Source: Pirellulales bacterium (lineage in GTDB: Bacteria > Planctomycetota > Planctomycetia > Pirellulales > Pirellulaceae). From it: 64,000 nt of DNA. Location: the NCBI GenBank assembly GCA_022451045.1, contig JAKUOW010000003.1:6224-70223 (forward strand), written 5' to 3'. The notes below the pieces were generated by a model. The model ran no database searches and had not been told where the DNA came from. It was given only the letters and a program-made list of their open reading frames with translations. Shown here in pieces: positions 3,855-54,576 of the stretch (position 1 is its first letter; every line of letters starts with the position of its first letter). The translations under genes were made by a program, and so were the position numbers.

Positions 3855-4328
3855 CTAGTCATTAGCTGCTTGGATAGCTTCAAGGACTTTCTGAGGATGG
3901 TCAGCAGCCTTGGGTACGCGCCGCCAGTGCCGTTTTACTTTTCCCTTTTCGTCTACCCATACGGTGGAACGAATAACGCCGATGGTTTTCTTGCCGTACA
4001 TCATTTTTTCACCATAGGCGCCGTACTTGGTCATGACTTTTTTATCAGTGTCACAAAGTAGAGTGTACGGGATGTCGTATTTGCAGATGAATTTATCATG
4101 CGATGCTTCATCATCCGGTGAGACGCCGAGGACAAGTGTGTTGAGTTTTTTGAACTCTTTATCCAAAGCGGTGAATCCGATGGCCTGTTTTGTGCATCCG
4201 GGTGTGTCATCTTTTGGGTAGAAGTAGACGATTACATTTTGCCCGCGAAGGTCCTTCAATGACACTTTGTCGCCATTTTGGTCCTTTAGCGTAAACAGCG
4301 GTGCTGCTTTTCCTTCTTCAACAGCCAT
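3855..4328 (-). CDS. bcp: thioredoxin-dependent thiol peroxidase (peroxiredoxin Bcp)
   Basis: 157 aa with peroxidatic motif FYPKDDTPGCT and a typical Bcp length. Confidence 0.85.
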   Translation of the reverse strand: MAVEEGKAAPLFTLKDQNGDKVSLKDLRGQNVIVYFYPKDDTPGCTKQAIGFTALDKEFKKLNTLVLGVSPDDEASHDKFICKYDIPYTLLCDTDKKVMTKYGAYGEKMMYGKKTIGVIRSTVWVDEKGKVKRHWRRVPKAADHPQKVLEAIQAAND

Positions 4329-4456
4329 GTTGTATGCTCCTTGCCGATCTCATCTTCAAACCGCCCTATTCTATAAAATCTCCTTCCCAATCATAGACAC
4401 CCACTTTTTCAATCGTCGTAAGACACGGATATACAACAACTTACAGTTTAGGAAAT

Positions 4457-4493
4457 TATAGACAGTCTATGTTTAATTCATGGACAGTCTATC
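4457..4493. promoter_or_regulatory. pair of 15-bp inverted-repeat motifs (TATAGACAGTCTATG and CATGGACAGTCTATC), candidate operator
   Basis: The copies lie at 4457-4471 and 4479-4493, with centres 22 bp apart. They sit in the bcp / DUF1080-PQQ divergent intergenic region. The same motif recurs at 12864-12911 and 53594-53608. Confidence 0.5.
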
Positions 4494-4498
4494 TTTTT

Positions 4499-4514
4499 TG
4501 GCGGGTGTGATGCC
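4499..4514 (+). promoter_or_regulatory. sigma-54-type -24/-12 promoter candidate (TGGCGGGTGTGATGCC)
   Basis: GG at 4500-4501 and GC at 4512-4513 give the exact GG-N10-GC spacing. The element starts 5 nt after the proximal palindrome and lies about 70 nt upstream of ATG 4583. Confidence 0.4.
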
Positions 4515-12802: not shown

Positions 12803-12836
12803 TGCCAATCATGTGCCAATCATTGCCAATCATGGA
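12803..12836 (-). repeat. three tandem copies of ATGATTGGCA (10-11 bp period); copies 2+3 form a sigma-54-like TGGCAC-N5-TGGCA element (12803-12818)
   Basis: The minus-strand read is CCATGATTGGCAATGATTGGCACATGATTGGCAGG. GG (12817-12816) and GC (12805-12804) have GG-N10-GC spacing. Confidence 0.4.
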
Positions 12837-12911
12837 CACTCACTCTTTGTAAATTGAAATAAACATAGACTGTCCATGAATTTTTGAGCATAAAAACATA
12901 GACTGTCTATG
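12828..12911. promoter_or_regulatory. three copies of the palindrome family upstream of the DUF1553-DUF1501-WD40 operon
   Basis: CATAGACTGTCCATG at 12864-12878 and CATAGACTGTCTATG at 12897-12911 have centres 33 bp apart. A half-site variant AATCATGGACACTCACTCTTT lies at 12828-12848. Confidence 0.5.
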
Positions 12912-52369: not shown

Positions 52370-53179
52370 ATGAAACGAAACAGCATCTTAATCTTGGCGA
52401 CGGCAGTTCTGTCGCTTTCAGTCGTTGCAGCTGATGTTGTAGCGCAACCACAAGGTCAGCGCCCGCAAGGTCAGCGTCCAGGTGGCCAAGGTGGATTCGG
52501 CCAACGAGGCAGTAATCCTATTCAGCTTCTTCGAGTTGCCGAAGTTCGGGAAGAAGTAGAACTTCTTGATGAGCAGTACGAAGAATTGCAAACAAAAGCT
52601 CGCAAAATTCAGGAAGAAGCTCGCGGTACAGGCGAACGACCTAACTTCCGTGAATTGTCCGAAGAAGAGCGAAACAAGCTAATTGCAGAGTTCCGCAAGA
52701 GGTCTGAGGAGACCAATAAAAAGATTGCTAAGCTAGTGGAAGATGTGCTTCTCCCGCATCAAAAAGAGCGATTAGATCAGATCGCACTTCAGATGCAGGG
52801 AACAGCTGCTCTGTTTACCCCGAAGGTGCGTGAAGCGCTGAAAATCACTGCTGAAACCGGTGAAAAGATGCAAAACGTGTCACGTGAAGTAATGGAAGGT
52901 GTTCGCGATAAAGCACGTGAAGCTTTCCAGAGCGGAAATCGTGATGGCATCCGAGAGTTGTTTGAAAACGCTCAAAAAGAAGTGAATGAGAAGGTTTTGG
53001 GTCTCCTGAGCGATTCTCAGAAGAAGAAATTTGAGGAAATGAAGGGTAAGCCATTCAAGCTACCTGAAGGCGCACTTCGACGTCCTGGTGGTGGTCAAGG
53101 TGGGCAACGACCTGGTGGTCAGGGTGGCCAACGCCCAGGTGGTCAAGGCGGAGAACGTCCAGCACGTCCTGCAACATAA
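52370..53179 (+). CDS. secreted Spy/CpxP-like (LTXXQ-motif) protein flanked by G/Q/R/P repeats (tentative)
   Basis: It has the signal peptide MKRNSILILATAVLSLSVVAADV and helical K/E-rich repeats with LLDEQYEEL, LLPHQKERL and LSDSQKKKF. QRPGGQGG repeats occur at both termini. Confidence 0.5.
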   Translation: MKRNSILILATAVLSLSVVAADVVAQPQGQRPQGQRPGGQGGFGQRGSNPIQLLRVAEVREEVELLDEQYEELQTKARKIQEEARGTGERPNFRELSEEERNKLIAEFRKRSEETNKKIAKLVEDVLLPHQKERLDQIALQMQGTAALFTPKVREALKITAETGEKMQNVSREVMEGVRDKAREAFQSGNRDGIRELFENAQKEVNEKVLGLLSDSQKKKFEEMKGKPFKLPEGALRRPGGGQGGQRPGGQGGQRPGGQGGERPARPAT

Positions 53180-53250
53180 TGCCCCATTTGTCATCCGATG
53201 ACAAAGCGATTCACTGATTCATGCAATAATCTGCATGCGACAATTGCTGC

Positions 53251-53286
53251 AAGCCTCTTGGTTAATCCAGCCAAGAGGCTTTTTTC
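53251..53286 (+). terminator. rho-independent terminator
   Basis: A perfect 11-bp stem AAGCCTCTTGG / CCAAGAGGCTT has a 9-nt loop and is followed by TTTTT. It lies 72 nt after the stop at 53179. Confidence 0.8.
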
Positions 53287-53307
53287 ATGCGCGATTAACC
53301 CCCGCTC

Positions 53308-53326
53308 AATCATGGACACCTACTTT
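53308..53326 (-). promoter_or_regulatory. half-site variant of the palindrome family (minus-strand reading AAAGTAGGTGTCCATGATT)
   Basis: It is near-identical to 53551-53569 (AAAGTGGGTGTCTATGATT) and 12828-12848. Confidence 0.4.
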
Positions 53327-53406
53327 GTACTCGAATTTGTCAACTTTATAGTAGTTCTTAAAGGGGGGTATTATATACCACCTTTAATAGTGCCAAAAAA
53401 GCATAT

Positions 53407-53425
53407 AAATGCCAATTTGGCATTT
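53407..53425. repeat. perfect 19-bp palindrome AAATGCCAA-T-TTGGCATTT
   Basis: I read it directly from the sequence. It lies in the 510-nt intergenic region upstream of hsp20. Confidence 0.6.
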
Positions 53426-53550
53426 TAAGTCGATGGCAAGTTTGAATCTAATAGAGGCTTAGACTTCTTTCGAGAATTATCTAAGGCAGGCATAAAGTGA
53501 GTTCTCTGGATCAAAAATGACTGAAAACAAGCTGTTTTTGGTCAAAATAA

Positions 53551-53608
53551 AAAGTGGGTGTCTATGATTAAGCACGCTTGATGGCGGGGAGAACATGGAC
53601 TGTCTATG
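53551..53608. promoter_or_regulatory. palindrome-family copies upstream of hsp20 (half-site variant 53551-53569; full palindrome CATGGACTGTCTATG 53594-53608)
   Basis: This is the same motif family as at 4457-4493 and 12864-12911. Confidence 0.5.
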
Positions 53609-53612
53609 AATT

Positions 53613-53628
53613 TGGCATGACGATTGCA
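53613..53628 (+). promoter_or_regulatory. sigma-54-type -24/-12 promoter candidate TGGCATGACGATTGCA
   Basis: It matches TGGCAC-N5-TTGCW, with GG at 53614-53615 and GC at 53626-53627. It lies 63 nt upstream of the hsp20 ATG and starts 4 nt after the palindrome. Confidence 0.55.
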
Positions 53629-53690
53629 TTTTGGTTGGTCAGAACTTGAGCGTGAGCCAAGTTGGCAATTTGAAATGAGAGGAGAATGTC

Positions 53691-54131
53691 ATGTTGATTA
53701 AATGGAACGATCCCTGGACAGCACTGCAAAGCGAAATGCACTCGTTGCGTGATGAAATGCAACAGGTCTTTGGTGGGCTTTTGTCATCGAGTGGTAGTCG
53801 AAGGCATGCCGATGACATTTCTGCTGTGCGAATTCTCGAAGACCAAACTGGCTACATCATAGAAATGGCTATGCCTGGTATCGCCAAAGATGCAATTGAT
53901 TTGGAAGTGGACACTGATAACCAACTCATCATAAAAGCACATCGAAAACGAGAGTCAGAAGATGTGATTCTTCACCGACACGAACGCGCATTTGGAGATA
54001 TTTGTCACGGTTTTGACTTGCCAAATGACGTAGATCGAGAGCAGATCGATGCTGAACTTCGAGATGGATTACTGCATGTATCCGTTTCAAAAAGGCCAGA
54101 ACTACAACACCGATCTATCGAAGTGAACTAG
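53691..54131 (+). CDS. Hsp20/alpha-crystallin small heat-shock protein
   Basis: 146 aa with the alpha-crystallin domain pattern (YIIEMAMPGIAKDAIDLEVDTDNQLIIKA...GLLHVSV). GGAG precedes the ATG. Confidence 0.9.
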   Translation: MLIKWNDPWTALQSEMHSLRDEMQQVFGGLLSSSGSRRHADDISAVRILEDQTGYIIEMAMPGIAKDAIDLEVDTDNQLIIKAHRKRESEDVILHRHERAFGDICHGFDLPNDVDREQIDAELRDGLLHVSVSKRPELQHRSIEVN

Positions 54132-54198: not shown

Positions 54199-54576
54199 AT
54201 GACGAAATCCAAAGAAACAACCACCAAAACGCAACCATCGGATCGCGCGAATTATGTGTCGCCACGCGTGGATATCCTTGAGTTGTATACCGAATTCCAT
54301 CTCTTTGCAGATATGCCCGGCGTGCAAAAGCACACGGTGGAATTGACATGTGCCAATGGTGAATTGAGTATCAGTGCTCCGGTTGCTTTCATTCATAACT
54401 CAAAACGGGTTGTCCTCGGGAATTCATTGCCAGAGGGTTATCGCCGTCTATTCACCGTTGACGATACAGTAGAAATTGAGAAGATTGCCGCAGAGATGAA
54501 CAATGGCGTATTGAAAGTCACACTTCCCAAGAAAGAGTCTGCACAGTCAAGACGCATTGCCATTAGTGTCAACTAG
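54199..54576 (+). CDS. Hsp20-family small heat-shock protein (second copy)
   Basis: 125 aa with FHLFADMPGVQKHTVELTCANGELSISA...NGVLKVTLPK. Confidence 0.85.
   Translation: MTKSKETTTKTQPSDRANYVSPRVDILELYTEFHLFADMPGVQKHTVELTCANGELSISAPVAFIHNSKRVVLGNSLPEGYRRLFTVDDTVEIEKIAAEMNNGVLKVTLPKKESAQSRRIAISVN

Follow-up and report, generated by a model that had tools for sequence, protein, structure and literature searches.

A dispersed repeat family linked to RayT-like transposase genes adjoins a probable sigma-54 promoter of hsp20 genes in Pirellulaceae

Introduction

In the RAYT/REP (REPIN) systems, to which the bacterial interspersed mosaic elements (BIMEs) of E. coli belong, a short repeat stands in inverted copies on either side of the gene of a HUH/Y1 enzyme (RAYT, the tyrosine transposase associated with repetitive extragenic palindromes, REPs). 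Further copies of this repeat are scattered through extragenic space, singly, as inverted pairs or in mosaic clusters built from several unit types, and orthologous loci keep their units, although in changing numbers. A second kind of association, named TIRYT/TIRtron, comprises RAYT-like genes with non-REP inverted repeats at a roughly fixed distance, and some of these repeats form moderately abundant dimer or cluster families (Di Nocera et al., 2013, PMC3733652). In Quentin et al. (2018, PMC6006769), TIRYT is equated with subclass 2.1 of TnpA_REP, subclass 2.3 is embedded within it, and the subclass 2.3 genes are reported to be without identifiable flanking REP-like structures. Here, we analyzed a 64-kb stretch of Pirellulaceae (marine planctomycete) DNA, hereafter the window, in which a palindrome recurs at three loci and at one of them lies 4 nt from a sigma-54-type promoter in front of two small heat-shock protein (hsp20) genes. 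The palindrome (unit A) and two related units (B and C) are one family of short dispersed intergenic repeats, and B is the repeat that accompanies a RayT-like HUH/Y1 gene clade found across many phyla, both beside the genes and in dispersed copies. We consider it probable that this RayT-linked repeat family and the hsp20 sigma-54 promoter are two separate things standing side by side.

Outside the planctomycetes, E. coli ibpB also has a sigma-54 promoter. Within Planctomycetia, predicted sigma-54 promoters upstream of the IbpA (COG0071)/GroEL/DnaK cluster were found enriched in an in-silico survey (PMC12316311), and in R. baltica rpoN is present and an adjacent hsp20 pair is heat-induced (PMC2754498). 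A palindrome recurring near promoters tempts one to read it as the operator of a regulon, and a preliminary description of the window had proposed just such a shared operator or activator module, joining hsp20, a DUF1553/DUF1501 operon and a PQQ dehydrogenase. Since the palindrome belongs to a transposase-linked repeat family, a regulon deduced from it would tie heat shock, peroxide defence and DUF1553/DUF1501 genes together in error.

Results

Three unit types form one family of extragenic repeats

The exact B pattern, and only this pattern, was scanned against 185,579 species genomes, and for the genomes that matched, 8-kb loci around the B matches were compared; loci are numbered L. All coordinates are those of the window unless a locus is named. 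The closest genome was that of Rhodopirellula sp. SAT12 (contig PAXU01000006.1), with 95–98% identity to the window, while the Pirellulaceae metagenome-assembled genome (MAG) LRMED-194, a sister species, showed ~85% identity.

By aligning all copies of the repeats in the window and in the related genomes, three unit types were distinguished. Type A has the canonical form CATAGACTGTCCATGAWTT, or CATAGAC-T-GTCCATGAWTT in the alignment of ~40 copies. It had been described as a 15-bp palindrome; the sequence does recur, but across these copies it is imperfect and asymmetric in a consistent way (CATAGAC-T-GTCCATG), and it therefore has an orientation. Type B (AAAGTGGGTGTCCATGATT), previously taken for a half-site of the palindrome, is a separate and nearly invariant unit of 19–21 nt (AAAGTGGGTGTCCATGATTGG), which holds the clade-wide core GGGTGTC (reverse complement GACACCC). 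Type C, with the consensus TCTAAGACAGGCATG / TCTAAGACAGGCATGATTT, is a relative shorter by one base. The core TGTCCATGAWT is common to A, B and C, and A, which is without the clade-wide core, may be taken as two copies of the lineage-specific B tail AATCATGGAC joined in inverted orientation. In the window itself, the degenerate palindrome CATRGACWGTCYATG with ≤2 mismatches has 5 sites against 0.43 expected, a number that none of 100 shuffles reached.

The exact-B scan matched 50 loci, 11 of them in LRMED-194, nine in SAT12, three in a Verrucomicrobiales MAG and two in an Acidobacteriota MAG, with single matches in the remainder (the taxonomy of the matched MAGs is possibly affected by mis-binning); in Alteromonas aquimaris, one B locus held two matches. 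A and B co-occur in clusters in both Pirellulaceae genomes, at about 10 or more array loci per genome. The common layout is B(−)...A...A...B(+), and direct tandems and solitary units are found as well.

With 70 of the 87 units lying in the ~13% of sequence outside crude open reading frame (ORF) calls, the repeats are overwhelmingly extragenic. Neighbouring A units are mostly 22, 33 or 66 bp apart, and the gene-proximal B units point towards the downstream gene. These properties could be those of sites for a transcription factor, a repressor or an enhancer-binding activator, through which hsp20, the genes for Bcp and GSDH, and those for DUF1553/DUF1501 would form one sigma-54 stress regulon. 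We regard this explanation as unlikely. Clusters occupy divergent and tandem gaps, but also the DNA straight after the stop codons of upstream genes and one convergent gap, and the 33-bp spacing results from a tandem unit that consists of A and a semi-conserved 18-nt spacer. The adjacent genes share no functional theme, which also speaks against the regulon: they encode a Bcp/PrxQ peroxiredoxin, a GSDH/3-keto-disaccharide hydrolase, several DUF1549/DUF1553(+DUF1501) proteins, a sulfatase, a BNR protein, a DHDPS-family enzyme, RsmE, a ferredoxin, DUF3311 together with a Na/solute (SSF) symporter, and a thioesterase. As far as we know the boxes of OxyR, PerR, Fur and LexA and the CIRCE and HAIR elements, none of them fits the sequence.

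Unit B flanks RayT-like transposase genes

At one LRMED-194 locus (L012), a 322-aa ORF is bracketed by two B units in minus orientation upstream and two in plus orientation downstream. Its product matches the NCBIfam model 'REP-associated tyrosine transposase' (NF047646) with E = 2e-9, which is below the curated cut-off. The HuH (H71-x-H73) and Y183-VDL-N187-P188 (Y-x3-NP) motifs are invariant, with 112 aa from HuH to Y, and 2965 homologues at E ≤ 1e-10 were obtained among 8000 candidates scored; their sources name them 'REP element-mobilizing transposase RayT' or 'Transposase IS200-like'. Searches of the PDB with the single sequence and with a profile returned nothing significant, so that a fold search was needed. 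The best match of the AlphaFold model (pLDDT 84.6) was E. coli TnpA_REP (4ER8_A; Foldseek E = 3.4e-5, target TM 0.72), followed by the IS200, IS608 and ISDra2 transposases, and a long, helical C-terminal extension is predicted. The B copies closest to this gene, TGGCTGTCCATGATT, are intermediate between B (GGGTGTCC) and A (GACTGTCC).

The association of gene and repeat was assessed from both sides. Starting from the gene, we inspected 80 metagenomic loci that encode 33–40%-identical homologues, 69 of them with enough upstream flank. GACACCC was present ≤300 nt upstream in 46 of these 69, mostly at −50 to −95, and had the opposite orientation in three loci only; the inverse GGGTGTC was present downstream in 26 of 70 homologues, mostly 140–290 nt past the end of the tblastn match. 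By our own estimate, the core would stand next to a homologue by chance at ~0.02 per locus. The proximal units have the consensus rGGACACCCAy with lineage-specific flanks, and they often occur in arrays. Starting from the repeat, a RayT-like gene was found in 4 of the 50 B loci, namely L012, L016 (Verrucomicrobiales), L025 (Alteromonas) and L035 (a gammaproteobacterial MAG), and in a third Pirellulaceae lineage (L143) such a gene has two B units upstream. That B flanks RayT-like genes across phyla is a further point against a transcription-factor site.

Inverted B pairs, B(−)...B(+), lie 140–290 bp apart upstream of genes at several loci, and they might instead be read as the terminal inverted repeats (TIRs) of a miniature inverted-repeat transposable element moved by a DDE transposase, or as the ends of an invertible promoter segment subject to phase variation. 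Both are highly improbable. From pair to pair the interiors vary in both length and sequence, target-site duplications are not seen, and many of the B units stand alone or in direct tandem. The orientation of the hsp20 interior does not change among >10 independent assemblies, and the gene that B flanks encodes a HUH/Y1 enzyme, which is neither a DDE transposase nor an invertase. Nor are the pairs REPIN hairpins, given this distance and their unrelated interiors.

Compared with the known systems, the RayT-linked repeats resemble RAYT/REP in the flanking of a HUH/Y1 gene by inverted copies, in the extragenic dispersal as singlets, inverted pairs and mosaic clusters, in the persistence of units at orthologous loci while numbers change, and in the match of the enzyme model to 4ER8. 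They differ from RAYT/REP in that the units have no stable imperfect hairpins and no 5′ GTAG tag, which is absent from the aligned units; in a copy number of tens rather than hundreds per genome; and in an enzyme of ~320 aa, in which 112 aa separate HuH from Y and a long extension follows at the C terminus. The repeat system is closer to TIRYT/TIRtron, where likewise non-hairpin inverted repeats flank the gene at a fairly constant distance; in the present loci, the proximal unit lies mostly at −50 to −95. The published TIR motif, GGGG[AT][CG]A[CG], fits the core rGGACACCCAy in few loci; the register GGGGACAC needs two further G residues that few of 45 units have. The protein itself is similar to TnpA_REP subclass 2.3 (~325 aa, HuH-to-Y ~110 aa, a specific C-terminal domain, Alteromonadales), having 322 aa, 112 aa, a helical extension and an Alteromonas homologue, and we provisionally assign it to this subclass from its length, the spacing and the Alteromonas homologue. 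Arrays of ~20-nt units with the core rGGACACCCAy are candidate cognate DNA for a large RayT-like clade, and units devoid of hairpins raise the question of how a HUH enzyme recognises them.

Units are conserved, swapped and multiplied at orthologous loci

In the window, the repeats form clusters at three loci. At locus 1, the Bcp/GSDH locus, a B unit at 4389–4407 (− strand) points to the Bcp/PrxQ peroxiredoxin gene (3855–4328, −) and is identical in five lineages, and two A units, listed without strand as are all A units here, lie 22 bp apart at 4457–4471 and 4479–4493. At locus 2, the DUF1549/DUF1553-DUF1501 locus, a B unit at 12828–12846 (−) upstream of the operon adjoins three tandem copies of ATGATTGGCA at 12803–12833, and two A units follow at 12864–12878 and 12897–12911, 33 bp apart; the sister species has three more units here. 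At the hsp20 locus, the A unit CATGGACTGTCTATG (53594–53608) is 4 nt 5′ of the −24 box. The B unit AAAGTGGGTGTCTATGATT at 53551–53569 (+) is identical at 18 of 19 positions in L141, and also in L131 apart from a 10-nt tandem insertion. A variant B unit at 53308–53326 (−), past the terminator of the upstream gene, is kept at 18 of 19 positions in L131 and L141 and is disrupted by an insertion in SAT12. Between the two B units are two C units (53447–53494, +), one degenerate at 53447–53461 and the other, TCTAAGGCAGGCATA, at 53480–53494; type C also occurs in the repeat clusters L008, L033, L032 and L038. The palindromes, paired at 4457/4479 and 12864/12897 and single at the hsp20 locus, and the two half-sites there were all located as the preliminary description had them.

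Comparison of orthologous loci revealed substantial turnover. At the hsp20 promoter, A is found in the window, SAT12 and the L131 group, while L141 carries the non-palindromic B-type unit AAGTGGGTGTCTATG at the same position, which means that dyad symmetry is not what is conserved there; this does not support the palindrome as an operator. At locus 1 in L144/L145, a B-type unit takes the place of the first A, the second A has the reverse orientation, and the distance from this unit to the downstream conserved element is longer by 12 nt. In LRMED-194, locus 2 holds additional units, the arrays at two other loci are much larger, and the DUF3311 locus has two A units that are missing in SAT12. 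A 10-nt tail straight after B units, ATGATTGGCG, occurs one to three times, depending on the assembly, within a single population (L131/L132/L133, upstream of hsp20). Such gain, loss, swap and expansion of units is the behaviour of a repeat family and not of a fixed operator architecture. The absence of palindromy in L141, the 12-nt shift relative to the GG-N10-GC element at locus 1 and the unequal unit numbers of sister species likewise weigh against transcription-factor sites, whereas the better conservation of the units than of the spacers is what such sites would show.

As a separate observation, the tail (ATGATTGGCG/A) is present in three copies at locus 2 (12803–12833), resembling a variable-number tandem repeat, and it can create spurious TGGCA boxes.

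The hsp20 genes have a probable sigma-54 promoter

The sigma-54-type promoter TGGCATGACGATTGCA of the hsp20-hsp20-Zn-peptidase operon lies at 53613–53628 (+), with the −24 GG at 53614–15 and the −12 GC at 53626–27, spaced by exactly N10 as had been noted before. It precedes two small heat-shock protein genes at 53691–54131 and 54199–54576 (+; Pfam HSP20, E = 4.8e-18 and 4.3e-13), which are followed by the Zn-peptidase gene in a synteny kept in related lineages. The exact Hsp20 protein of the window is not on record, and the orthologues were therefore reached through homologues; those recovered have 87% and 83% protein identity and the same synteny. When TGGCAYG-N4-TTGCW was searched with ≤1 mismatch, the only match in the window was this one, which is perfect and lies 62 nt 5′ of the hsp20 ATG, against ~0.03 perfect matches expected per window by our own estimate.

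The promoter was aligned between the window (TTGGCATGACGATTGCA), the L131 group (TTGGCATGATGATTGCG) and L141 (TCGGCATGGGGATTGCG). GGCATG and ATTGC are invariant in the three lineages and the 4-nt spacer differs (ACGA, ATGA, GGGA); changes are confined to the spacer, −26 and the last position, leaving 11 of 12 consensus positions in L131 and 10 of 12 in L141, in surroundings that are 52–62% identical between lineages. Based on the conserved consensus positions, the survey trend in Planctomycetia (PMC12316311) and the rpoN gene and heat-induced hsp20 pair of R. baltica (PMC2754498), we accept the element as probably a genuine promoter, from which transcription would start at about 53638–53640. 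The preliminary description is borne out on this point. Like the sigma-54 promoters predicted for other small heat-shock genes (IbpA/COG0071), it has TGGCAYG-N4-TTGCW at the right distance upstream, and here the element is kept in orthologues. Unlike them, the present one has a repeat unit immediately upstream of −24, and its enhancer is only a candidate. It is probably an ordinary, expected sigma-54 heat-shock promoter. In agreement with the published in-silico trend, it offers for Planctomycetes a conserved and testable case of small heat-shock genes probably driven by sigma-54, for which an enhancer candidate can be named.

It is also conceivable, if rather doubtful, that the sigma-54 match is fortuitous and that hsp20 is transcribed from a sigma-70-type or other promoter, for example TGGTCA-18-TATGAT at 53539–53568, whose −10 would lie inside the B unit. 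This candidate scores 9 of 12, TTTGG in the −24 box looks like the sequence that usually follows A units on their 3′ side (GTCCATGAATTTGG), and a perfect sigma-54 match is also found antisense within an ORF (see below). Against it, the sigma-70 −35 varies (TGGTCA, TAGTCA, TGATCA, TGGGAT) and the −10 reads CATGAT in other lineages, while the sigma-54 consensus positions are conserved with the variation falling into the spacer, and a perfect match is rarely expected by chance in a window of this size.

An activator of the sigma-54 promoter could bind further upstream. Two dyads, gTGCCAAaaaaGCAt at 53390–53404 and ATGCCAATTTGGCAT at 53409–53423, form a candidate enhancer (upstream activating sequence, 53390–53423) ~205–230 nt 5′ of the predicted start; they stand between the two B units with a spacing of 21 nt. 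None of the three lineages differs in the TGCCAA halves, and in the L131 group the right half is disrupted in part. With ≤1 mismatch, nothing else in the window matched. Judged from these sequences, the upstream dyads appear more plausible as activator sites than the palindrome at about −38. Neither a GAFTGA (activator) nor an RpoN-box signature was found in the window.

Two further structures accompany the operon. At 53644–53662, the hsp20 5′ untranslated region (UTR) holds a hairpin, ACTTG...CAAGT, whose stem is the same in four lineages and whose loop differs. It shows no covariation, and a covarying structure or RNA thermometer was not accepted for this region; the hairpin may act in stability or thermosensing. 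A dyad, GGTATTATATACC, preceded by a G-run, lies at 53367–53379 and is kept upstream of hsp20 in all lineages as a GGTAT-N-ATACC-like sequence.

Sigma-54-like sites are not enriched near the repeats

A sigma-54-like site was defined as one having at least 9 of 12 consensus positions, with GG and GC, and its proximity to the repeats was measured for 82 units in ~200 kb of related sequence. Sites lay within 12 bp of 5 of the 82 units, against ~4 expected from a background of 0.71 sites per kb. This lack of enrichment does not support a module of repeat and promoter.

The claim that each pair of palindromes has a GG-N10-GC element beside it is literally true but weak. At locus 1, the element TGGCGGGTGTGATGCC (4499–4514, +), upstream of the GSDH/3-keto-disaccharide-hydrolase gene, agrees with only 8 of 12 consensus positions, yet five lineages share GGCGGGTGTGATGC of this region without change. 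GGGTGT, a B-like string, forms part of it; a weak sigma-54 promoter is one possible reading, and a fossil B unit that took up an insertion is another. At locus 2, TGGCACATGATTGGCA (12803–12818, −) agrees with 10 of 12 positions; it adjoins the B unit and not the palindromes, is absent from the orthologous locus of LRMED-194, and probably results from the tandem ATGATTGGCA copies rather than being a promoter. A conserved GG-N10-GC stands beside an A unit at two of the three window loci, which is in favour of transcription-factor sites; no conserved sigma-54-like element was found in any other orthologous cluster pair. The repeat unit beside the −24 box of hsp20 is conserved, but such adjacency is not specific to sigma-54 promoters.

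How the repeats and the promoter may have come together

If the repeats and the promoter are separate, the following course can be proposed. The RayT-like HUH/Y1 enzyme would recognise the core GGACACCCA of B, bind the units and probably nick and copy them. By propagating or homogenising units, it could give rise to the B(−)...A...A...B(+) arrays, the 33-bp tandem A units and the expansions of the 10-nt tail, and the arrays would then persist for a long time at orthologous sites. A may have arisen as a dyad of B tails (AATCATGGAC). The hsp20-hsp20-Zn-peptidase operon would be transcribed from 53613–53628, with the help of an enhancer-binding ATPase that would have to be encoded elsewhere in the genome and that could bind the TGCCAA-N3-TGGCA dyads ~205–230 bp upstream, and the repeat beside −24 would be a long-standing neighbour and not a regulatory site.

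Several results weigh against this view. No RayT-like gene was seen in the window or in the SAT12 loci examined; such genes were found in the sister species and the third lineage (L012, L143), so that a RayT-like gene in this genome is presumed from its relatives. Unit A is without the clade-wide core, and its tie to the transposase consequently relies on shared sequence, on intermediates (GGCTGTCC beside the L012 gene) and on the A/B swaps. A hairpin or REP-like structure had to be rejected for the units: no stable single-strand DNA hairpin was found in A, B or C, as the folds, at −0.1 to −1.4 kcal/mol, are no better than those of shuffles. Unlike classical REPs, the units thus offer no stable hairpin, and their recognition by an HUH enzyme is putative. 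Across lineages, B units are 95% conserved, against 52–62% identity of the spacers around them, and this high conservation, together with the orientation of gene-proximal B units, suggests a function at the level of the host, possibly regulatory. Finally, a second perfect sigma-54 match, TGGCATGAGGATTGCA, is situated antisense inside a 325-aa TPR-like ORF (L012, 7373–7388), which demonstrates that a perfect match alone is no proof of a promoter; this match may be fortuitous or an intragenic sigma-54 site.

The conservation of B could be accounted for by co-option, in which the RayT-like protein or a host factor would bind the RayT-linked repeats and modulate neighbouring genes, at hsp20 by occupying the DNA just upstream of −24. 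We think this improbable. It would agree with the strong purifying conservation of B units at orthologous sites, with the retention of gene-proximal B units even where distal ones are lost, and with the unit whose tail, TGTCYATGAnTT, stands 4 nt from the −24 box in three lineages whether A or B is present. However, homogenisation by the enzyme could produce the same conservation, the adjacent genes are heterogeneous, and the geometry of unit and promoter is not fixed at locus 1. A bolder version is that a non-hairpin GGACACCCA site is recognised by a widespread, subclass 2.3-like RayT clade and that in these planctomycetes the host has co-opted its arrays as modular cis-elements, the unit 4 nt from −24 tuning sigma-54 heat-shock transcription; we would put little weight on it. 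A RayT-linked repeat family beside an independent hsp20 promoter remains the reading that we prefer.

Other features of the window and of the repeat loci

Two other roles were considered for B and rejected. Its ATG could be a start codon, but only 5 of ~50 B units open a long ORF and the others run into a stop after 3–60 codons. A sigma-70, sigma-32 or extracytoplasmic function (ECF) promoter, or an extended Shine-Dalgarno sequence, was set aside after inspection, which showed no conserved −35 partner at a fixed distance. Rfam gave no match at the gathering threshold in the whole window, and matches in 53150–53750 were at chance level only (E ≥ 0.7).

In the Acidobacteriota MAG (L043, 1150–1290), B-like units make up a long, nearly perfect inverted repeat between nrdR and the gene of an ECF sigma factor, and this repeat adjoins TCCACAATT repeats resembling DnaA boxes. 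At another pair of loci, ~130 nt 3′ of the gene-proximal B unit are nearly 100% identical between both species (L008, ~1091–1230, and L014, reverse strand, below B at 4066); the stretch has a non-coding look, and it could represent a small RNA or a structured 5′ UTR.

The gene before hsp20 (52370–53179) keeps its synteny throughout the related lineages. Its product looks secreted and has a charged, helical middle part and, at either end, Gly/Gln/Pro-rich repeats (GGQRPGGQGG); no Pfam or NCBIfam family was found for it. An intrinsic terminator follows this upstream 269-aa gene at 53251–53281, and its pairing is kept in the L131 group by a compensatory T:A to A:T change.

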